DNA from: an uncultured Clostridia bacterium
Lineage (GTDB): Bacteria; Bacillota; Clostridia; Christensenellales; UBA1242
Assembly (NCBI GenBank): GCA_947588355.1
Contig: CANPYI010000007.1
Coordinates: 601-64,600 of the forward strand
Direction: 5' to 3'
DNA length: 64,000 nt
In this document: positions 2,680 to 61,129 of the stretch, in pieces
How the letters are laid out: every line of letters begins with the position of its first letter
How positions within the stretch are numbered: the stretch's first letter is position 1
Made by a program: the position numbers and the translations under genes
Notes under the pieces: generated by a model
Told to the model about the DNA's origin: nothing
The model's database searches: none
The model's input: only the letters and a program-made list of their open reading frames with translations

Positions 2680-3611
2680 ACGTCCACCACCATTTTTGTG
2701 AAATGAAAACCATTCAAAAAAGAAGAAGCGTCCAAAATTTTGCCGCCGGCTGACTGACATTTCAAAATCTCAAAAATGCCATTTTGTGTATTTATCAAAA
2801 ATCGCTTTTTTGTACACAAAATCTCGCCAAAAACAGTGCTTCCTTGCAATTTTTTTGCAAATTCATCTTCTGCAGATTTGGCTTTGAAAACCTTTATACG
2901 CTCGCCGCCAACAAAAAAGTATGCCACCGGCCCGCCAACAAAAGCACGGACCTTGTTCACAAGTTTTTGTGCAGACTGCGAAAAATCCAAAAGTCCATCT
3001 TCTTTGTATATCGGTTTCACAAAGGTTGCTTTCAAACTGTCTTGAGGCGTTCTTTTTGCAGTGCCGTTTTCCAATTTTGCCAAGGTTTCAAGCAAAAGTT
3101 TTGAGCCAACTTCTGCAAGTTTTGGAAGAAGTGTGTTGTAATCATCATCTGGCAAAATTTCCACTTTTTGTTGCGAAAAAATGTCGCCATCATCCATGCC
3201 AACCTCAGTCTTCATAATGGAAACACCTGTGATTGTGTCGCCATTTAATAGCGCACTTTGTATAGGCGTTGCGCCACGATATTTTGGAAGAAGTGACGGG
3301 TGAACATTTATGCAAAGTTTGAGGTCCAAAAGTGCCTTTGGCAAAATTTTTCCATAAGAAGCCGTGACAAAAATGTCACAATCAATTTGTTTAAACTGTT
3401 CAAGGTGCTGTGACAATTTTTCAAACTGAAAAACAGGAATATTGTGAGCCTCCGCCAAAGATTTGATGTGCGGAGAAACAAGTTTGTTCCCTCGCCCTGC
3501 CGGTTTGTCCGTTTGACAAACCACGGCCACAACTTTGTGAGTGGAATTTATCAATTTTTCAAGCACAATTTCGGCAAAAATAGGCGTTCCAAAAAATAAA
3601 ATCTTCATCAA
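2676..3611 (-). CDS. fmt: Methionyl-tRNA formyltransferase
   Basis: 311 aa; N-terminal KILFFGTP, HPSLLPKYRG motif; classic def-fmt adjacency. Confidence 0.92.
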   Translation of the reverse strand: MMKILFFGTPIFAEIVLEKLINSTHKVVAVVCQTDKPAGRGNKLVSPHIKSLAEAHNIPVFQFEKLSQHLEQFKQIDCDIFVTASYGKILPKALLDLKLCINVHPSLLPKYRGATPIQSALLNGDTITGVSIMKTEVGMDDGDIFSQQKVEILPDDDYNTLLPKLAEVGSKLLLETLAKLENGTAKRTPQDSLKATFVKPIYKEDGLLDFSQSAQKLVNKVRAFVGGPVAYFFVGGERIKVFKAKSAEDEFAKKLQGSTVFGEILCTKKRFLINTQNGIFEILKCQSAGGKILDASSFLNGFHFTKMVVDV

Positions 3612-4084
3612 ACAACTCCATGCGACTTTTTGTATTCTTTTCCTTCGTCAGTAAGGTCAACAAACAAAACACCATTAAGGTGGTCAATCTCGTGGCATAT
3701 GCAACGTGCAACATAGTCCTCACCTTCAAATTCAAAAGGCTTGCCATTGCGGTCAAACGCCGAAATTTTGACATAGCGCGGACGTGTGACATCACAATAA
3801 AAACCTGGCACACTCAAGCAACCCTCGCTGTCGGTGACTTTGCCTTTTGTTTTGATAATCTCGGGATTGATAATCTCCAAAAATTCGTCATCTCCCAAAT
3901 CAATGACAATAGCACGGCGCAAAACTCCAACCTGAACAGCAGAAATTCCCATGCCTTTTTTTGACAGCATGGTGGCCTTCATATCGTCCAAAAGTTGCCC
4001 CAAAGACTCATCAAAACTCACAACCGGCTTGGACTTTTTTCTTAATGTTTCATTTCCCAAAACAACAATTCTTCTGGTGGTCAT
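3608..4084 (-). CDS. def: Peptide deformylase
   Basis: EGCLSVPG and HEIDHLNG motifs; start set at MTTRRIV behind AAGGAGA. Confidence 0.93.
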   Translation of the reverse strand: MTTRRIVVLGNETLRKKSKPVVSFDESLGQLLDDMKATMLSKKGMGISAVQVGVLRRAIVIDLGDDEFLEIINPEIIKTKGKVTDSEGCLSVPGFYCDVTRPRYVKISAFDRNGKPFEFEGEDYVARCICHEIDHLNGVLFVDLTDEGKEYKKSHGVV

Positions 4085-6553: not shown

Positions 6554-6642
6554 AAGCCAAAAATCTCCTTCAAAATAAATCTTTGCCATTTTAACACAAA
6601 AAAAAAGAAAAATCAAGTATTTTTCTTAAAATATAAACAAAA

Positions 6643-18600: not shown

Positions 18601-18786
18601 TGCTTTCCTCAAAATTTCAATAAAAATTATACAACAATTTGCACACAAAAACAATACTATTTTCAAAAAAATAGCAAAAAATCAACTTTTTTGCTTGATT
18701 TTAAGCACTTTTTTCAAAAAAAATCGCAAAACATCTTGACAAATTTTTTTTAAGTGATAAAATTACCCTAGAAATAGGGGGATAAT

Positions 18787-19209
18787 ATGAACACAAAAGT
18801 TGAAGAAGCGAAAAAAATCAGAAATTCACTGATAAGACAAAACTTGAGATTATTTCACGAAATCCAAAGATTAACTTCCAAAGATCACAGGGTGATTGAC
18901 AAAATTGAAGAAACTCTTGGCGAAAATTACAATATGTCTTTAAAAAACAGATCAATATCTTTGGAAAATGGAATATTGTCCTTTAATGGCAAAAAAATGG
19001 ACGAAAATGCTCGAAATTTTTTGAAAAATAAAAAAGAAATCAATCAAAACACTGAAAGAGTGGACGAAGACACAAAAAAATCCAGTGAAATTTTGAAAGA
19101 TCTCAAATCAAAATTGAAAACATACCAAGAAAACAACAATAGAATTAAAGAACTTGAAAAAACAATAGCGGCAGAAAAGCCTGCCAAAATTTCAGCAAGA
19201 AATTTGTAA
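18787..19209 (+). CDS. Hypothetical coiled-coil protein (orphan; ends in the shared hairpin)
   Basis: 140 aa, Lys/Glu/Asn-rich; own TTGACA...TAAAAT promoter; inserted antiparallel between tilS and spoIIE. Confidence 0.6.
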   Translation: MNTKVEEAKKIRNSLIRQNLRLFHEIQRLTSKDHRVIDKIEETLGENYNMSLKNRSISLENGILSFNGKKMDENARNFLKNKKEINQNTERVDEDTKKSSEILKDLKSKLKTYQENNNRIKELEKTIAAEKPAKISARNL

Positions 19210-19238
19210 AAAAAGCATATCACCCGATATGCTTTTTA
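19209..19238. terminator. Shared hairpin terminator, copy T1 (GCATATC-ACCC-GATATGC)
   Basis: Stem 19215-19221/19226-19232 with flanking A and T runs; same sequence as T2-T4. Confidence 0.8.
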
Positions 19239-21625: not shown

Positions 21626-22315
21626 TTAAGCAAACCGATAAAATTGCAATATGCCACAAAACAGATGATAGCAAAACTTGTGCATGTATTCTCTGTTTTG
21701 CAAAAGCAGTTCTTCATTTGGATTGGACAAAAAACCGCACTCCACCAAAATGCTAGGACACGGCGAAACGTTCAATACATAAAAATCGCCGACCTTGGAA
21801 GTGAGTTTGGCGTTATCAAAATTGTCATGCAAATTTTTTGAAACACTGTCGGCAAGCGCCTGACCACTTTCACTTCCGTCAGCATAATAAACCTGCGCAC
21901 CGCACGCCTCTGACGACGGAAAACTGTTCATGTGAATGCTGACAACAATATCTGGATTGCTGTTTTCAATCACCTGCTTGCGTTTTTCCATCTCGCTTTT
22001 CTTTTTGTTTGGCGCAAGAGGGTCATACAGCCCCGCCATACTCTCCCTTGTCATCACAACTTCAAATCCATATTGCTCGCATATGCCCGCCAACGTTTTG
22101 GCATACTCCAAATTTAAGTAACTTTCAGTTGCCTCAGTCGTCTTTCCAACCGCCCCGCCGTCCTTTCCGCCGTGCCCAGCATCAATCACAATCACATGCT
22201 CCGGCTTTGGCATAAAGGTCGGCCGAATTGCCGTGAAATACACCACCACACTTGCCAAAACAAGCAAGAAACATAAAACAATCAAAATCCACTTTCGTTT
22301 TAAAGTTAAAAACAT
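21626..22315 (-). CDS. cwlD: N-acetylmuramoyl-L-alanine amidase, CwlD-like
   Basis: 229 aa; signal-anchor then VIDAGHGGKDGGAVG, SIHMNS and LVECGFLSN amidase_3 motifs. Confidence 0.85.
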   Translation of the reverse strand: MFLTLKRKWILIVLCFLLVLASVVVYFTAIRPTFMPKPEHVIVIDAGHGGKDGGAVGKTTEATESYLNLEYAKTLAGICEQYGFEVVMTRESMAGLYDPLAPNKKKSEMEKRKQVIENSNPDIVVSIHMNSFPSSEACGAQVYYADGSESGQALADSVSKNLHDNFDNAKLTSKVGDFYVLNVSPCPSILVECGFLSNPNEELLLQNREYMHKFCYHLFCGILQFYRFA

Positions 22316-22385
22316 ATGATATTTTATGAAAATCTCACAAATTTAAGAACAAAAAGGCATTTTTATCAAATTTTTTAAAAAAGGC

Positions 22386-22412
22386 TTGACAAACGCCCCC
22401 CCGTGTTAAAAT
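22386..22412 (+). promoter_or_regulatory. Promoter of the ankyrin cassette with a C7 tract in the spacer
   Basis: TTGACA(22386-91)-15 nt including C7 (22396-22402)-TGtTAAAAT extended -10. Confidence 0.6.
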
Positions 22413-22444
22413 GACCTTGTAAACAAAATTTTTTGGAGGTATAT

Positions 22445-23449
22445 ATGAAACAAGAATTGAAAGACAGCATTTATAATCTTTTCAAACAGGCACTCTCTTT
22501 GGGAGAATTTGAACAAGCAGAGCAAATCTTAAAATCGCTTAATATAGATGATGCCATGTTAAACGCTGCAGTAGACGATCAACTGGATTTCGAATCTCCC
22601 GACATTAAAAGCATAAAATGGTTGCTTGCACACGGCGGAAACTTCAAAGATGACGCTTTATTTAAAATCGTGAGAAAAGACAGTAAAGAATTGATTGACT
22701 TGGCTTTAAAACAAGGTGTCAACATAAATGCTCAAGATGAAAATGGTCGCACGCCCTTGTTCGTTGCTGCGCTGTTTGGAAAAGCCGATATTCTTGATCT
22801 GTTACTTAAAAATGGAGCAGATCCAAATGTTAGAGACAACAGTGGCCAAACCGCGATGTTTTCTTGCGCCGCCACTTATGTTGCTTACAGCACCGAACAC
22901 GTGAAAAAGATTAAACTGCTTGCCAAAAGTGGCGCAGATGTAAATGCCAAAGATAATCAAGGCAGAACTCCAATAATGTTTGCAGACAAACATGGAGTTG
23001 AAGCATTATCTTCATTGGGCGCCGATGTAAACGCCAAAGATAATGATGGCAAAACAGCATTGCTGCATATCTTATCCACCAACGTAACCACTTCTACCAG
23101 GCAAATATTCGTGAAAGATTTCTCAGAAATAGTTCCCGCTGCAAAGATGTTGATAAAAAATGGCGCAGATGTCTTTGCAACAATAGATTGTGTGGACGAA
23201 CAAAATATCCTCTTCCAAAGAAACTTGTTTGATATTGCCAAAGACAATCATAATTTGGACGTCTTAGAAGAGATAGTTGGAAAAAATTTATATAAAAAGT
23301 TGTTTGAAGCAAGCAACCGCTTAAAATATGCTCATCAAACAGCAGAGTCTCCAACATCAAAGCTTAGTGCTACTGGAGAAAGATGTCTTGCTGTCTGCCA
23401 AGACCCGCCATCTGAACATAAAATTCAAAACAAAGATAAAACAAAATAA
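22445..23449 (+). CDS. Ankyrin-repeat protein
   Basis: At least 5 ANK repeats (GRTPLFVAALFGKADILDLLLKNGADPN, NQGRTPIMFA, GADVNAKDNDGKTALLH); ATG 22445 behind GGAGG. Confidence 0.85.
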   Translation: MKQELKDSIYNLFKQALSLGEFEQAEQILKSLNIDDAMLNAAVDDQLDFESPDIKSIKWLLAHGGNFKDDALFKIVRKDSKELIDLALKQGVNINAQDENGRTPLFVAALFGKADILDLLLKNGADPNVRDNSGQTAMFSCAATYVAYSTEHVKKIKLLAKSGADVNAKDNQGRTPIMFADKHGVEALSSLGADVNAKDNDGKTALLHILSTNVTTSTRQIFVKDFSEIVPAAKMLIKNGADVFATIDCVDEQNILFQRNLFDIAKDNHNLDVLEEIVGKNLYKKLFEASNRLKYAHQTAESPTSKLSATGERCLAVCQDPPSEHKIQNKDKTK

Positions 23450-23455
23450 AATTTT

Positions 23456-23483
23456 AAAAGCATATCACCCCGATATGCTTTTT
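23456..23483. terminator. Shared hairpin terminator, copy T2
   Basis: GCATATC-ACCCC-GATATGC + T5. Confidence 0.8.
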
Positions 23484-23500
23484 AATTGCTTTTAATTTCT

Positions 23501-23692
23501 CTACAGTCCTAACTTGACATCCAACCCGCCGTGGCCGGCATCAATAACAATCACCTTTTGCGTGTTTGGACGAAATGTCGGCTTTATGGCAGTGAAATAA
23601 ACAACGGCTGTTGCAATCGCAAGCAAAAAACAAGTCGCCAAAACAAAATATTCCTTTTTCAAAACAAAAAATCTGTGTTTTTTAGAAAACAT
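23501..23692 (-). pseudogene. Truncated 5' fragment of cwlD (copy B)
   Basis: 63 codons; ...VVYFTAIKPTFRPNTQKVIVIDAGHGG then LDVKLGL-stop; matches the cwlD N-terminus and breaks at the same point as copy C. Confidence 0.85.
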
Positions 23693-23745
23693 AAGATATT
23701 TTATTTTTCAAACATTTCACTTATAACAAAAATTTGGCACAAATG

Positions 23746-23775
23746 ATTGAAGCCCTAAATTTTTGATGATACAAT
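23746..23775 (+). promoter_or_regulatory. Promoter of the MuF-motif/DUF4926-like cassette
   Basis: TTGAAG-18 nt-TGaTACAAT extended -10. Confidence 0.5.
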
Positions 23776-23804
23776 CACCGAAAATATTATCAAAGGAGAA
23801 CATT

Positions 23805-24376
23805 ATGAATATTTTTGATTGGTTGTTTAATTGGGTCAAAAAATAATTGGTGGCTTTGGTGGGGATTTTATTCAAAAAATAAGTTTAAGCAGTTTGGATT
23901 TGGAAAAATGTAATGGAGAAGCAATATCTGATGAATTAACTAACACTTGTGAAATATGTGTCGCTTTAAACAAAACTGTTTTCAAAAGTAATAATAGTCC
24001 AACATACACACATCCCCATTGCAAATGCATTCAAATTCCAACAACTTTATCATCGCCTTCGCTCATATTTGATATGAGGAAAATAACAGATTATCTTTTT
24101 ATTGACAAAAGCAAGTCAAGAATGATAAAATCAATGGGATTTTATCCAGAAGATGCACAATTCCTATATGATTATGTATCTTTAAATGTTACAAAAGAAT
24201 TTGTAAATGGCAACTACATATTAAAGAATTTAAATAAAAATGGTCAACATTTTCAAATTAATTATAATATTAATGGTAAACGAGACCATTCAAACGAGAC
24301 TTTTCAATGCTATGCGGGTTGTATTGCATATCCAAACGGAAAAATTAAAATTGCAACACCTTTAGTAAAAATATAG
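23805..24376 (+). CDS. MuF-type zinc-motif + DUF6883-like protein, interrupted by a -1 frameshift at A6 (23838-23843)
   Basis: ATG 23805 behind AAAGGAGA stops after 13 codons; one extra A would join it to the 23831..24376 frame; CEIC..x20..HPHCKC motif; KITDYLF...GFYPED... C-terminal domain. Confidence 0.6.
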
Positions 24377-24387
24377 GAGAGATGAAC

Positions 24388-24717
24388 ATGAAACTATACG
24401 ATGATGTCAGAGTCATAAATGACAAATATGAAAACATTGGCATAAAAAAGGGCAGCCATGGTGCAATTGTTTTGGCTGAAATCCGAGGACACAGTGTGGA
24501 AGTGGAATTTTTTGATCTTCCAAAAGATGTTTTTGCTCTGCAATGCATAGACATCGAAGATTTGGAAGTGACGCATGAATCTGCGGTAACAGATGAGCAT
24601 ATTTTGGACGAACTCCCCTCACATGACAAACGATGGTGGTGCAAAGTCGAAAATGGTTACATCGTAAATTTGCTTGGTGAAAAGAAAAACAAAATGCCAT
24701 ATGATTACAATTCATAA
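24388..24717 (+). CDS. DUF4926-like small protein (candidate antidote/immunity partner)
   Basis: MKLYDDVRVINDK...GSHGAIVLAEIRGHSVEVEFFD resembles DUF4926; its AGGAGA RBS overlaps the upstream stop codon. Confidence 0.6.
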   Translation: MKLYDDVRVINDKYENIGIKKGSHGAIVLAEIRGHSVEVEFFDLPKDVFALQCIDIEDLEVTHESAVTDEHILDELPSHDKRWWCKVENGYIVNLLGEKKNKMPYDYNS

Positions 24718-24746
24718 AAAAGCATATCCCATGATATGCTTTTTTT
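24716..24746. terminator. Shared hairpin terminator, copy T3
   Basis: GCATATC-CCAT-GATATGC + T7. Confidence 0.8.
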
Positions 24747-24927
24747 ATTTCCAATACAGCCCTAACTTGACATCCAACCCACCGTGCCCAGCATCAATCA
24801 CAATAACATGCTCCGCCTTTGGCATAAATGTCGGCCGAATCGCCGTGAAATACACCACCACGCTTGCCACAACAAGCAACACACATAAAACAATCAAAAT
24901 CCACTTTTTCTTTAAGGTCAAAAACAA
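24745..24927 (-). pseudogene. Truncated 5' fragment of cwlD (copy C)
   Basis: 60 codons; MFLTLKKKWILIVLCVLLVVASVVVYFTAIRPTFMPKAEHVIVIDAGHGG then LDVKLGLYWK-stop; start codon is TTG instead of ATG. Confidence 0.9.
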
Positions 24928-25008
24928 ATGATATTTTATGAAAACAGCAGAAAAATAAGAACAAAAAGGCGTTTTTTATAAAAAATATAAAAATTTTTGA
25001 AAAAGGGC

Positions 25009-25036
25009 TTGACAAGTCCCCCCCCCGAGTTATAAT
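25009..25036 (+). promoter_or_regulatory. Promoter of the third cassette with a C9 tract in the spacer
   Basis: TTGACA(25009-14)-16 nt including C9 (25018-25026)-TATAAT(25031-36); paralogous to the 22386 promoter. Confidence 0.65.
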
Positions 25037-25069
25037 GATCGCGAAAATTGAAAATGAAGGAGAAAAATT

Positions 25070-25693
25070 ATGAAATTTGAAAACGAAATTTATATGGTTG
25101 TTAATAAAAGCAACCTTGCACAAGGTGGAACAACAAAAATAGGAGCAGACGACGACCTTCTTGAAATCGAAATCCAGAATGATTACAATATGGGACACTT
25201 CCGCACAAAATGTTCATTAAGTGACCTTATTGGGCTACTAAAAATTTGGGAATTCGACTTCAAAACTCAAACACCAAATTGTTTTTCTCGTGAACCAATA
25301 ATTATTTTAGATCCTAATGATACTGAAAATATAGCAAGACGGCAAGAAAATCAGAAAATAGATTACAGTTTAAAAAGTTCTAAAGTTGAAAAATTTTTGA
25401 GTTGCTGGGATGGCAGTATAACAATTCAATTCGGAGAACAAAAATATTTAATCGCATTTCCTGCTAAAGATTTGTCCAATGATTTTCAAAGTGTTGTAAA
25501 AGATTTAAAAGATAAATCTGTTGAATTTAAAGAAAATGTTAATCTTCGCCCCTCACTCACGATCACTGGAGATGATTGTTTTGAAAAATTTATTAATTTA
25601 TCGCTAGAAACTCAAGAAAGACTAGAGAAAAGAGTGGCTGAAAGCAAAGGCAAAAGCGGAAATAAACACAAATCCAGAGAAAAAGAAAAATAA
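25070..25693 (+). CDS. Hypothetical protein (orphan cargo of the third module)
   Basis: 207 aa, no recognisable motif, Lys-rich tail; AAGGAGA RBS. Confidence 0.6.
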   Translation: MKFENEIYMVVNKSNLAQGGTTKIGADDDLLEIEIQNDYNMGHFRTKCSLSDLIGLLKIWEFDFKTQTPNCFSREPIIILDPNDTENIARRQENQKIDYSLKSSKVEKFLSCWDGSITIQFGEQKYLIAFPAKDLSNDFQSVVKDLKDKSVEFKENVNLRPSLTITGDDCFEKFINLSLETQERLEKRVAESKGKSGNKHKSREKEK

Positions 25694-25703
25694 ATTTTCA
25701 TTT

Positions 25704-25734
25704 AAAAAAGCATATCACCCGATATGTTTTTTTT
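25704..25734. terminator. Shared hairpin terminator, copy T4 (slightly decayed)
   Basis: GCATATC-ACCC-GATATG + T8. Confidence 0.7.
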
Positions 25735-59083: not shown

Positions 59084-60961
59084 CTATATGTTTTCTGCCA
59101 AAAACATGGCTTTAAACTTTTCATTACGCGCAAACAATTCGTCAAATGTTCCTTCATCAACAATAATGCCGTTGTCAAGAAAGAATATGTGGTCAACATT
59201 TTTGATTGTTGAAAGTCTGTGTGCAACAATGACAATTGTGCTTTTGCCCTTCAATCCGTCTATACTTTTTTTCACTTCGTTTTGAGCAAAGTTGTCAAGA
59301 GAAGATGTACTTTCATCAAAAATAATGATATTGGAATTTCTTAAAAGTGCCCTTGCAATAGCCAAGCGCTGCTTTTGACCGCCGGAAAGTTTGATACCGC
59401 TTTCGCCTACCTGCGTGTCAATCCCTTTTGGCAAACTTGAAACAAATTCGTCCAAACTTGCCTTTTTGATGCTGTCCCAAAGTTCTTCATCTGTGGCATC
59501 GGCCTTTGCAAGCAGCAAATTTTCTTTTATAGTCATGTCAAAAATGTAAGGAAATTGATTGACAAGTGAAATTGTGGAACGCAAAGTTTGTTTGTCCAGA
59601 TCTTTTATATCCACACCATCAATCAAAACTTGACCGCTGTCCGCCTCGTACATTTTGCTCATAAGATTGAGGATTGTCGATTTTCCGCTTCCACTTTTTC
59701 CAACAAATGCAACTGTGGTGTTTGGAGAGATTTTGAAAGACAACTTGTCAAAAATTTTGTTTTCAGAGACCAATTCTTTTTTCTTAGGTTGTTTTGTATG
59801 CTTTTTAAAAAATCCCCCCCCCGCATTTTTCTGCGGCTGGTTCATACTTGGATATTCATATTCACGGAAAGTGTAGGAAACATCTTTAAATTCGATTGTT
59901 CCTACAACATTTTCAAGTTTTTCAACTCCAAAACGTTCAGTAACAAATTCATCTTCGTCAAAAAGTGCCGCCATACGCTTGTGACTGACTTTTATGTCCA
60001 CAATGCTGTTTGTAACGCTTCCAATACCCGAAATGAGTGTCCATAACGATCCACGATTGGAATAAATTATCATAAATGTAGCCAAAGTCAAAAGTCCAAG
60101 ATTCATAAGATGAATTCCAAGCAACAACACCAACATTGTTCCTATGCCAATAACAAAGTTTCGTGAAGACCAAAATTTTAAATCAGAAAGATCCATTTTG
60201 TATCTTGCTTTGCGATAATCTTCGTAATTTGTCCTGGAAACGTCCGAAAGTTTTTGCTCCAAGCCTAAAGATTTTATGTCTTTTTCACTTCTGACAATTT
60301 CGGTGGTCAGAGAGTTGATTTTATCATTTTTTTGACGAACAACAAATCTGTTTTTACGGCGAATTTTCACACGATAGTATTCCAAAACAAAGCCAATCAG
60401 CACAATCGCCAAAAGACACAGCGACACCCAACCATTAAGTGTGGTTATATAAATCAACATAACCACAGATGTGATCATTTCAAACAAAATGTCCACAACT
60501 GTTGCAAGTTGATCAACGATTCTGGCAGGATCCTCAACAATTCGCATAACAAATGTACCGGTGTCGTGGTCGTTGTAGGTCTTTGAATTCAGTTTGAAGG
60601 CTTGCTTTGCAAGGTCAAGATTAAGATTTGCCATTATTTTGTTGGAATATTTGAAATAAATCCAAGATATTGTATACCAACAAAAACGTTGCAAAACAGC
60701 TATTGAAATTGTAATCAAGCCTGTGATAAGCGCTTTGTGAAAGTCGGGTGGAATCGTGACTGTTTCGCTGACAATCTGTGGAGTCACATACACAATAACT
60801 TGTGCAAGCAAAATAGTGAGAAGAATGTCACAAACGCCTGCAACAATTGTCAAAAAGAAATACAGAAAAATCCAGAATTTGTATTTTGATAAATATTTTC
60901 CGAGTTTAAATTCGTTCTGCTTTTTCTGTGTTTGATTGTTTTCAATAATATTTTTACTCAT
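59084..60961 (-). CDS. ABC exporter, fused permease/ATPase (MsbA/multidrug type) with an insertion at the start of the NBD
   Basis: 625 aa; 6 TM helices, GKSGSGKST Walker A, LSGGQKQR signature, IIIFDESTS Walker B; contains a G9 tract (plus-strand C9 59814-59822). Confidence 0.9.
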   Translation of the reverse strand: MSKNIIENNQTQKKQNEFKLGKYLSKYKFWIFLYFFLTIVAGVCDILLTILLAQVIVYVTPQIVSETVTIPPDFHKALITGLITISIAVLQRFCWYTISWIYFKYSNKIMANLNLDLAKQAFKLNSKTYNDHDTGTFVMRIVEDPARIVDQLATVVDILFEMITSVVMLIYITTLNGWVSLCLLAIVLIGFVLEYYRVKIRRKNRFVVRQKNDKINSLTTEIVRSEKDIKSLGLEQKLSDVSRTNYEDYRKARYKMDLSDLKFWSSRNFVIGIGTMLVLLLGIHLMNLGLLTLATFMIIYSNRGSLWTLISGIGSVTNSIVDIKVSHKRMAALFDEDEFVTERFGVEKLENVVGTIEFKDVSYTFREYEYPSMNQPQKNAGGGFFKKHTKQPKKKELVSENKIFDKLSFKISPNTTVAFVGKSGSGKSTILNLMSKMYEADSGQVLIDGVDIKDLDKQTLRSTISLVNQFPYIFDMTIKENLLLAKADATDEELWDSIKKASLDEFVSSLPKGIDTQVGESGIKLSGGQKQRLAIARALLRNSNIIIFDESTSSLDNFAQNEVKKSIDGLKGKSTIVIVAHRLSTIKNVDHIFFLDNGIIVDEGTFDELFARNEKFKAMFLAENI

Positions 60962-60987
60962 AAAAAAACCTCCGCTGATTGATTTTC

Positions 60988-61051
60988 GCGAAGGTTAGAT
61001 GTCTTTTTTTTCCCCCCCCCGCAAAGAGAGGAATTTTTGGCACACCTTCGC
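60988..61051 (-). promoter_or_regulatory. Leader inverted repeat enclosing a G9A8 tract (candidate attenuator) upstream of the ABC exporter
   Basis: GCGAAGGT (rc of 61044-61051) pairs with ACCTTCGC (rc of 60988-60995); plus-strand T8C9 at 61004-61020 lies in the loop. Confidence 0.4.
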
Positions 61052-61052
61052 A

Positions 61053-61094
61053 TCAAGAAATATAAGAAACATAAACATTTTCTACTATTTCCAC
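61053..61094 (-). CDS. Candidate 13-codon leader peptide (MEIVENVYVSYIS)
   Basis: GTG start 9 nt after AAGGAGG; stop codon ends 1 nt before the 5' arm of the leader inverted repeat. Confidence 0.35.
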   Translation of the reverse strand: MEIVENVYVSYIS

Positions 61095-61129
61095 GAGAGT
61101 GCACCTCCTTTTCAACAAATTATGTTATA

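Follow-up and report, generated by a model that had tools for sequence, protein, structure and literature searches.

Poly-C tracts in promoter spacers of a cassette locus from an uncultured rabbit-gut Clostridia bacterium: candidate phase-variable promoters

The porA (poly-G) and opc and fetA (poly-C) promoters of Neisseria meningitidis, as well as the vlp promoters (poly-A) of Mycoplasma hyorhinis, carry a homopolymer within the -35/-10 spacer, the length of which determines expression in a graded manner. The textbook cases of such spacer-homopolymer switches come from Proteobacteria and Mollicutes, and phase variation in gut Firmicutes is mainly due to invertible promoters and methyltransferase switches. 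To our knowledge no spacer-homopolymer switch has been described in Clostridia, and a narrow literature search found no report of one in that group. Single-C changes in the poly(C) spacer switch the fim2 and fim3 promoters of Bordetella pertussis by altering the spacing, and several tract lengths coexist within one culture (PMC10172299).

The locus described here is located in a 64,000-nt stretch of DNA (the window) and resembles the fim2/fim3/fimX system of B. pertussis in that paralogous promoters have an unbroken stretch of C between the -10 box and the recognition element upstream of it, with run lengths differing by paralogue (PMC10172299). The tracts measure 11-16 C in Bordetella and 7-9 C here. 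The Bordetella promoters need the activator BvgA~P, whereas those of this Firmicute appear to be activator-independent consensus sigma-A promoters. Mixed lengths in a single culture and effects on expression have been demonstrated for Bordetella, whereas a single tract is seen to vary here. With the Neisseria and Mycoplasma systems the locus shares the homopolymer inside the -35/-10 spacer. Those systems control surface antigens of host-adapted pathogens and their switching rates have been measured, whereas the cargo here consists of cytoplasmic-looking accessory genes (for an ankyrin-repeat protein and an orphan 207-aa protein) of an uncultured gut commensal. The host bacterium lives in the rabbit gut. 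The locus is a plausible further case of the known mechanism of the Bordetella fim or Neisseria porA type, and we give about even chances to the view that its poly-C spacers are phase-variable promoters altered by slippage.

Promoters and cargo of the cassettes

The ankyrin promoter (22386-22412, plus strand) is formed by a -35 box TTGACA (22386-22391), a 15-nt spacer reading aacg-C7-gtgt, with the C7 tract at 22396-22402, and a -10 box TAAAAT (22407-22412). A TGn extended -10 element (TG at 22404-22405), absent from the first-pass annotation of this DNA, is present as well. A consensus promoter scan did not list this promoter because the scan covered spacers of 16-18 nt. Downstream is the cargo of cassette 1, a gene for a 334-aa ankyrin-repeat protein (22445-23449, plus strand; Pfam Ank families, E down to 6e-28), for which no close orthologue was found among 5.8 billion clusters. 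The cassette ends in a conserved bidirectional terminator hairpin, AAAAGCATATC-loop-GATATGCTTTT (23456-23482, assigned to neither strand). Divergent from the promoter lies the intact cwlD gene (21626-22315, minus strand), encoding a 229-aa Amidase_3 protein (E 4.5e-42).

Cassette 3 has a promoter (25009-25036, plus strand) with TTGACA (25009-25014), a 16-nt spacer reading agt-C9-gagt (C9 at 25018-25026) and TATAAT (25031-25036), thus matching the consensus at 12 of 12 positions. Its gene (25070-25693, plus strand) encodes a 207-aa protein belonging to no family, with a single homologue found (68% identity), and is followed by the conserved terminator hairpin (25706-25731, neither strand). The uninterrupted C7 (TTGACA-15-TAAAAT) and C9 (TTGACA-16-TATAAT) tracts therefore occupy the spacers of functional-looking promoters, both very good ones of sigma-A type, with perfect or near perfect hexamers and an RBS and ATG 25-35 nt downstream of the -10 box. 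All tract coordinates and sequences reported in the first-pass annotation agreed with the DNA on re-check.

Between these two cassettes lies cassette 2, whose promoter (23747-23775, plus strand; TTGAAG-17-TACAAT with TG) has no poly-C tract. Its gene (23805-24376, plus strand) encodes a MuF/head-morphogenesis C-terminal motif (CxxC...HPHCKC) and is frameshifted in the window at an A6 run (23838-23843), which is A7 in other strains. Residues 44-83 of the protein resemble the end of head-morphogenesis families (PHROG 1657, E 2.6e-5), and a DUF6883 match, considered for a MuF-type toxin/immunity assignment, was weak (E 0.02, below the curated cut-off). The second gene of the cassette is a small DUF4926-like gene (24382-24717, plus strand; 111 aa, E 1.4e-4, under the Pfam cut-off), and the conserved terminator hairpin follows at 24718-24743 (neither strand). 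Searches of Pfam, NCBIfam and PADLOC with the cargo proteins gave nothing specific beyond generic ankyrin and coiled-coil matches.

Cassettes 2 and 3 are each preceded by a cwlD' fragment on the minus strand. Fragment 1 (23501-23692) covers the first ~51 CwlD codons, with 59% identity to CwlD, and after GHGG continues as LDVKLGL before a stop; fragment 2 (24745-24927) covers the first 52 codons, with 88% identity, and after the same junction reads LDVKLGLYWK before its stop. The two share one junction, TACAGNCCTAACTTGACATCCAAC. The 3' tail of spoIIE was considered as the source of the residues beyond this junction (LDVKLGLY and a stop) and rejected, as local alignment scores were 12-15 against a mean of ~14 for shuffles; on that reading each module would have been a collapsed duplication in the order hairpin-spoIIE-cwlD-promoter.

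The tracts had been placed in a shared divergent region from which they might also affect a cwlD-side promoter. The first tract does face intact cwlD, but that of cassette 3 faces a 52-codon cwlD remnant. An effect on the cwlD side found no support: the tract is 81 nt from the cwlD start codon, on its upstream side, and falls outside the block adjoining that codon, which recurs beside each cwlD' fragment.

Abundance and length variation of the tracts

The window contains three C9 tracts and one C7 tract, all on the plus strand, and long C runs are in excess, as the first-pass annotation had claimed. The two remaining C9 tracts are not in cassette promoters. One (59814-59822) is read on the minus strand as G9, in frame in the ABC exporter ORF 59084-60961, and specifies Ala-Gly-Gly-Gly in the linker that precedes the ATPase domain; the other (61012-61020, G9 on the minus strand) falls in the 5' leader of the exporter gene, a structured region in which it forms a stem with CCUCUC, outside any promoter spacer. 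An Rfam search identified a known RNA family at none of the tracts, and only rRNA and tRNA elsewhere in the window. The C7 pattern had 10 matches versus 1.29 +/- 1.53 in shuffled sequences, and none of 100 shuffles reached 10. Runs of G or C numbered 411, 51, 7, 0, 1, 0, and 3 for lengths of 3 to 9, respectively; with three 9-mers, one 7-mer and zero 6- or 8-mers, the long tracts are far off the decay curve, an over-representation of roughly 50-1000 times. Long tracts exceeding genome composition, the signature of contingency loci, thus occur in the window, and in the related sequence L122 a C9 is the sole G/C run of 6 or more within 9.3 kb.

The gap in this run spectrum suggests that long uninterrupted runs are maintained, which argues against a possible, though less than probable, alternative. 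According to it, the promoter is conserved and horizontally exchanged with the homopolymer as a fixed component, and length differences are ordinary rare indels that segregate among strains and matter little or not at all for regulation, with no contingency switching. A static tract could be leftover filler from past length adjustment, or it could have a structural or regulator-binding role; neither role is known to us for poly-C in the spacer of a sigma-A promoter.

It had been reasoned that a tract which changes between otherwise conserved paralogous modules must be mutable. The lengths do differ (C7 versus C9), but the modules share 87% identity and also differ in the bases next to the tracts, so the paralogue comparison by itself is weak evidence of hypermutability. 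Comparison across strains is more direct for the ankyrin tract, and its alleles were read from assembled contigs (Logan contigs for all 13 runs found), at a coverage of ~3-5x. The tract is C7 in the window, L003, L004, X1, X2, and X6, and C8, giving a 16-nt spacer, in L005, L006 (the same as X4), and X7. One extra C in the tract is the only difference between the window and L005 (over 2,841 nt) or L006 (over 1,139 nt). Within sample S1, runs X1 and X2 have C7 and run X4 has C8; in a separate study X6 has C7 and X7 has C8, both with an A>G change at 22414. No single run yielded contigs with both alleles, and a search for RNA runs containing the region found none. The ENA assemblies were probably built from the four runs that also underlie the Logan contigs, and L005 and L006 may be two assemblies of one run; given this overlap, the coverage and the use of contigs, the C7/C8 support amounts essentially to two independent contrasts.

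A static promoter is poorly reconciled with tract length as the sole difference in 1.1-2.8 kb between one-sample assemblies, and with C7 and C8 each being seen in two unrelated studies, which implies repeated mutation. In its favor, A/T homopolymers differ between strains as well, namely A8/A9 at 18716-18723 and A6/A7 in cassette 2, so the C run is not alone in differing between strains. Among the S1 runs no further homopolymer differed in length.

It is quite unlikely that faulty sequencing or assembly at a homopolymer produced the C7/C8 difference, in which case it would say nothing about mutability. The low coverage, the reliance on assembler output throughout, a possible common run for L005 and L006, and contig breaks at or near tracts in some runs (such as X3 at 22379 and X2 and X4 at 59814-59822) are consistent with an artefact. 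However, an erroneous C8 needs a majority of a run's reads, and Illumina indel errors at 7-8-mers are much too rare for this; C8 is also present in two contigs of the unrelated study (X7), from a strain with its own SNPs; the S1 runs agree at all other homopolymers; and the C9 tracts, expected to be more error-prone, were reproduced identically in every assembly.

The cassette-3 tract is C9 in the window, L087-L090, X2, X3, X5, and X9, that is, in every assembly found (at least eight), and C9 is retained in L122. This constancy, among assemblies and across organisms, favors a static promoter and counts against switching, since the longer tract is expected to be more prone to slippage. Tracts of C7-C9 are at the low end of the lengths of fast-switching tracts in Neisseria, Campylobacter, and Bordetella. 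The phase-variable reading of the first-pass annotation, for which it had proposed a cross-strain comparison as a check, has thus fared unevenly: the spacer position of the tracts and the C7 or C8 alleles of the ankyrin promoter, in otherwise identical DNA, speak for it, and the invariable C9 of cassette 3 speaks against it.

Conserved promoters and portable units

The lone homologue of the cassette-3 protein led to L122, the source of the cross-organism promoter comparison, whose core genes are 72-73% identical to those of the window. Between the two, the promoter is 91% identical (52/57), the gene 80% and the 5'UTR 69%; the promoter as the best conserved part of the unit is what a static element predicts. 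Homology starts ~30 nt upstream of the -35 box and ends after the hairpin. In this one clean comparison the tract is inside the unit and not at its edge, which speaks against the idea, very improbable in our judgment, that the tract is a recombination boundary of portable units (by template switching or illegitimate recombination at homopolymers, for example) and not a regulatory element. Consistent with a boundary, in many contigs from other rabbit-gut runs the match is confined to the promoter core (~24972-25053) and is lost to either side of it, in some of them within or just after the C run, and L002 departs from the window just upstream of the -35 box; but short 90% matches to an A/T-rich consensus promoter are partly non-specific.

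A sister unit occupies the slot between tilS and spoIIE (18736-19236, plus strand). Its promoter reads TTGACA-aa-T8-aagtga-TAAAAT, with a 16-nt spacer and T8 at 18744-18751, and is followed by an ORF of 140 aa (18787-19209) and the same hairpin (19211-19236). A relative, L008, has G8 at the same place, and neither the T8 nor the G8 varied where checked, again as expected of a static promoter. Elsewhere the same promoter core has C9 in L104 and L122, one C8 contig and one C9 contig in X9, and C6 followed by longer filler, giving a 17-nt spacer, in X5 and X6. Spacers of the family cluster at 16 nt (cassette 3, L122, L104, the T8 unit, and the L008 G8 promoter), with 15 nt in the C7 allele and one C8 copy, so that the C8 allele of the ankyrin promoter restores the usual spacing. 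Homologous promoters of module 2 and of the relative L007 are devoid of poly-C, and the tract is thus dispensable for promoter function. The best CwlD match among GTDB representatives, 67% identical and from a rabbit Clostridia MAG, has a homologous promoter without poly-C. A GC-rich organism offers an independent analogue, with one lipoprotein gene behind homologous promoters having C7, C7, C9, and C12. In unrelated phage promoters with C7-C9 spacer runs the length is fixed within each family, and the fixed C7 promoters among them add to the case for a static tract.

The portable unit consists of an A/T-rich upstream tract, CTTGACAA, the homopolymer, (G)TGT or GAGT, TAnAAT, the RBS, the gene, and the conserved terminator hairpin, of the form GCATATC-N3-5-GATATGC. 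Such units are stacked next to cwlD, where each comes with a duplicated 5' piece of that gene, and also in the tilS-spoIIE interval; their content differs between strains. Each stacking on the cwlD side would have left an in-frame 51-codon cwlD 5' fragment with one identical junction. No recombinase was found near the units, which are flanked by tilS, spoIIE, cwlD, a hydrolase, transketolase, and similar housekeeping genes.

Orphan toxin/immunity arrays of polymorphic toxin systems (CDI, Rhs, and MuF-type) similarly contain tandem, small, strain-variable cassettes, each lying behind a displaced piece of a conserved gene, and here one cassette has a MuF-domain C-terminal motif with a small gene after it and an ankyrin-repeat protein is encoded by another. 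In contrast to those systems, the displaced fragment is the opposite-strand 5' end of a housekeeping sporulation gene and does not come from the conserved part of a toxin gene, a strong promoter of its own drives every cassette, and toxin/immunity assignments rest on the weak matches of cassette 2 (E 2.6e-5, 0.02, and 1.4e-4). The units also recall integron cassettes: they contain one or two genes, close with a conserved sequence able to form a hairpin, are stacked in one orientation at a fixed site, and vary in content between strains. However, no IntI tyrosine recombinase adjoins the array, with no integrase within ~8 kb; the 3' element is a 26-nt terminator-like stem-loop and not an attC site; and integron cassettes are promoterless, whereas each unit here has its own consensus promoter.

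An identity of 80-91% for the unit, against 72-73% for core genes, would fit exchange between species. We tentatively suggest, as a rather unlikely option, that the cassettes represent an undescribed, recombinase-free kind, in which species of an uncultured gut Clostridia lineage pass self-contained promoter-gene-hairpin units to one another and the units stack at fixed slots, with expression level set by the length of the spacer homopolymer (C, G, or T).

Proposed switching and its significance

If the poly-C promoters do switch, slipped-strand mispairing in the C run at replication would lead to the gain or loss of one C. The spacer would then shift by one base pair, between 15 and 16 nt at the ankyrin promoter and possibly between 16 and 17 nt at that of cassette 3, rotating and displacing the -35 box relative to the -10 box and thereby altering promoter strength. 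Expression of the cargo gene would change in a heritable and reversible way, as with a volume control ("dimmer switch") rather than a strict on/off switch. A graded effect would be expected especially at the ankyrin promoter, since its TGn extended -10 element should leave residual activity; on the static reading, the same element would buffer a one-base spacer change. Frequent reversible length change within a clone, altered transcription, and selection for it are what we infer.

If confirmed, such switching would mean that uncultured gut commensals diversify the expression of rare, horizontally exchanged accessory genes through slippage, and CTTGACAA-N2-4-C(7-9)-N4-TAnAAT would provide a simple signature for spotting such loci in metagenomes. 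The cassette architecture, if it is a real exchange system, would constitute a new route for moving ready-to-express genes between related gut bacteria.

Poly-C spacers in the cassette promoters

The window derives from a spore-forming Clostridia bacterium, uncultured, from the rabbit gut. Every sequencing run with the region is a rabbit-gut or gut metagenome, and the closest CwlD among GTDB species representatives (67% identical) belongs to a Clostridia MAG from rabbit ("Lapin"). Genes along the locus are, in order, tilS (minus strand), a small plus-strand gene, spoIIE (minus), cwlD (minus) and three plus-strand cassettes, which carry an ankyrin gene (cassette 1), MuF-like and DUF4926-like genes (cassette 2) and a 207-aa gene (cassette 3). 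The surrounding genes are housekeeping genes, and no recombinase was found within ~8 kb.

The two poly-C promoters described in the first-pass annotation match the window exactly in sequence and position. The ankyrin-gene promoter (plus strand) reads TTGACA (22386-22391), aacg, CCCCCCC (22396-22402), gtgt and TAAAAT (22407-22412), with a 15-nt spacer and a TGn extended -10 (TG at 22404-22405). The cassette-3 promoter (plus strand) reads TTGACA (25009-25014), agt, CCCCCCCCC (25018-25026), gagt and TATAAT (25031-25036), has a spacer of 16 nt and scores 12/12 against the consensus. Both are followed 25-35 nt downstream by a good RBS and ATG. The promoter of module 2 contains no poly-C.

Long G/C runs were described as over-represented in the window, and shuffles and the run-length spectrum bear this out strongly. 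The C7 pattern has 10 matches, against 1.29 +/- 1.53 in dinucleotide shuffles, and G/C runs of 3, 4, 5, 6, 7, 8 and 9 nt number 411, 51, 7, 0, 1, 0 and 3, respectively, with ~0.06 nine-mers expected at C = 0.21 and G = 0.17. The two further C9 tracts on the plus strand (59814-59822 and 61012-61020) are not promoter tracts; both are tied to an ABC exporter gene, one being coding and the other lying in the 5' leader. The former (G9 on the minus strand) is in frame in the exporter ORF (59084-60961, minus strand) and specifies Ala-Gly-Gly-Gly immediately ahead of the ATPase domain; slippage at this point would cut the protein short. Contigs break at this coding tract in two of four runs. The latter, likewise G9 on the minus strand, pairs with CCUCUC as a stem within a highly structured leader (60962-61125, minus strand; z = -3.7), which also contains a 13-codon upstream ORF (MEIVENVYVSYIS) and a hairpin sequestering the RBS, and looks like a translational attenuator. 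Both G9 tracts were invariant, with no length variant seen, in the assemblies covering them.

Tract length among assemblies and strains

Tract lengths were compared in all other reachable assemblies of the locus, as contigs only and at 3-5x coverage. The ankyrin tract is C7 in the window, in two other assemblies of the locus (L003 and L004), in sequencing runs X1 and X2 and in the divergent strain of run X6. It is C8 in assemblies L005 and L006 (the latter equivalent to run X4) and in two contigs of run X7. The extra C is the sole difference from the window in L005 (2,841 nt) and L006 (1,139 nt). Since X1, X2 and X4 are runs of one sample, both alleles are present there, and no homopolymer but the ankyrin tract differs among the runs of this sample. 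In another study, X6 and X7 have a nearby SNP in common (A>G at 22414) yet unlike tract lengths, indicating a second, independent change. The four runs behind the Logan contigs are probably also the source of the ENA assemblies, which leaves about two truly independent C7/C8 contrasts. An artefact of sequencing or assembly is an unlikely source of the difference, given that the more error-prone C9 tracts were reproduced perfectly and that C8 was seen again in an unrelated study.

The cassette-3 tract was C9 throughout, in the window, four other assemblies (L087, L088, L089 and L090) and runs X2, X3, X5 and X9. The length variation proposed for the promoter tracts is seen in these data at the ankyrin tract and not at that of cassette 3. 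Two A runs also differ between strains, A8/A9 at 18716-18723 (A9 in X5) and A6/A7 at 23838-23843 (X5 and X7).

Modules, portable units and their cargo

The same module precedes each cassette and consists, in order, of a terminator hairpin (AAAAGCATATC-loop-GATATGCTTTT), a 24-nt junction (TACAGNCCTAACTTGACATCCAAC, only at 23502 and 24755), a cwlD copy, a block of sequence adjoining the cwlD start codon, and the cassette promoter. The cwlD' copies (23501-23692 and 24745-24927, minus strand) comprise the first ~51 cwlD codons in frame, are 59% and 88% identical to CwlD, and end at one junction, between ...DAGHGG and LDVKLGL. The spoIIE tail was tested as the source of this junction and rejected. 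Identity to the region before the real cwlD is 87% in module 3 and 64% in module 2. In L007, the closest reference relative, cwlD, promoter, cargo, hairpin and a decayed cwlD' remnant are arranged in the same way, without poly-C.

The terminator-like hairpin, whose stem (GCATATC / GATATGC) is identical throughout and whose loop varies, ends every cassette unit in the window (19211-19236, 23456-23482, 24718-24743 and 25706-25731) and in related loci (L007 692-709; L008, from another relative, 126-144; L122, from another organism, 6611-6628). It was not found in ~1.2 Mb of unrelated loci. For terminators, it is unusual that the stem is conserved when the cargo genes are unrelated.

A single homologue of the cassette-3 protein (68% identity) was found among 5.8 billion protein clusters. 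It lies in L122, in the tilS-spoIIE slot and not beside cwlD, behind the promoter TTGACA-agt-C9-gcgt-TATAAT and with the same hairpin at its end. Homology with the window extends from ~30 nt upstream of the -35 to just past the hairpin, the flanks being unrelated. Identity is 91% in the promoter (52/57, C9 intact), 80% in the gene and 69% in the 5'UTR, against 72-73% in the adjacent core genes tilS and spoIIE. Judged from these limits and identities, the unit appears to have been transferred horizontally, and purifying selection appears to act on its promoter, covering both the uninterrupted run and the exact length of that run.

The tilS-spoIIE slot of the window itself holds a sister unit (18736-19236), with the promoter TTGACA-aa-T8-aagtga-TAAAAT (16-nt spacer with TGn), a 140-aa ORF for which no family was found, and the shared hairpin. 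Its T8 run, just downstream of the A8/A9 run, was constant in runs X1-X5. In L008 (CwlD 57% identical), a TTGACA-16-TACAAT promoter with G8 in its spacer lies next to cwlD, with no ORF for ~370 nt downstream; the long intergenic region after this cwlD (3237-3929) also contains several DnaA-box-like motifs (TTATCCACA / TGTGGATAA). A nearly identical module, tttttttaaaaaagGGCTTGACAACT-C9-GTGTTATAAT, precedes a small Cys-rich gene in a further, different context (metagenome contig L104), and contigs from other rabbit-gut runs have the promoter core alone in common, with C6, C8 or C9. Tract length thus varies among paralogous and xenologous copies.

Array content (22200-25300) is also strain-variable in runs X5, X6, X7 and X8: X5 has cassettes 2-3 and lacks the ankyrin unit; X6 has the ankyrin gene and lacks units 2 and 3. 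Several contigs of these runs join module sequences in other orders. One contig (L002, positions 1-33) has an identical cwlD and departs from the window a short way upstream of the ankyrin -35 (22381 onward); the 33 nt beyond the divergence match nothing in the window, and represent either an alternative cwlD neighbour in that sample or an assembly chimera.

Family and protein-cluster searches gave no informative relatives of the ankyrin-repeat and 207-aa proteins. The first protein of cassette 2 matches, over residues 44-83, the C-terminal end of phage head-morphogenesis (MuF-like) families (E 2.6e-5); a weak DUF6883 match comes next, and the gene after it is DUF4926-like. This arrangement is faintly reminiscent of orphan MuF-toxin/immunity modules. 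The MuF-like gene is frameshifted in the window at the A6 run 23838-23843: the ORF starting at ATG 23805, which has a good RBS, is 13 codons long and stops at 23844 (region 23805-23846). A6 is shared by every assembly of the window's own strain; A7 in X5 and X7 contigs joins this ATG to a 181-aa ORF (23831-24376). A 6-nt in-frame deletion in L003 (window 24609-24614) leaves the DUF4926-like protein with 109 aa in place of 111.

Spacer homopolymers as candidate length adjusters

The best-supported reading, which retains that of the first-pass annotation in qualified form, is that the spacer homopolymer may act as a slippage-prone length adjuster of a sigma-A promoter. The commonest spacer in the promoter family is 16 nt. 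The C7 allele, with 15 nt, would be weaker, the TGn element should partly rescue it, and C8 restores 16 nt. A similar mechanism operates at Neisseria porA/opc. The candidate promoters would also parallel those of Bordetella fim, in which expression is switched by changes of a single C in the poly(C) tract and one culture can contain tracts of several lengths (PMC10172299). The mechanism is itself of a known kind. The promoter anatomy, the enrichment of long runs, one real polymorphism and the spread of lengths among copies are shown here; switching is a candidate, and its rate, reversibility and effect on transcription are what we infer.

The main rival takes the run as a static, conserved promoter component and C7/C8 as an ordinary rare indel. 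Its strongest argument is that the longer C9 tract does not change at all, even between organisms; equally strong is the finding that C7 runs keep a constant length in unrelated phage promoters. Such phage promoters, with C7-C9 spacer runs, occur on viral contigs L123-L130, and run length is the same within each family (L123/L125/L126; L127-L129).

An independent and clearer-looking case of variable-length poly-C spacers is provided by one lipoprotein gene (signal peptide ...LAGC) on four contigs of metagenome Ga0256839 (L095, L097, L099 and L109; GC 0.59-0.68). Its homologous promoters, GGGGGGCTTGACAACT-Cn-GTGGTATAAT, have n = 12, 7, 7 and 9, respectively, and homology ends exactly at the promoter, the upstream sequences being unrelated.

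To our knowledge, the setting is new: the organism belongs to an uncultured gut Clostridia lineage, the promoters match the consensus and look activator-independent, and the units of promoter, gene and hairpin are portable. As a tentative and rather doubtful suggestion, the units could be cassettes that need no recombinase, bring their own promoters, pass between species and are tuned by homopolymers in the spacer.
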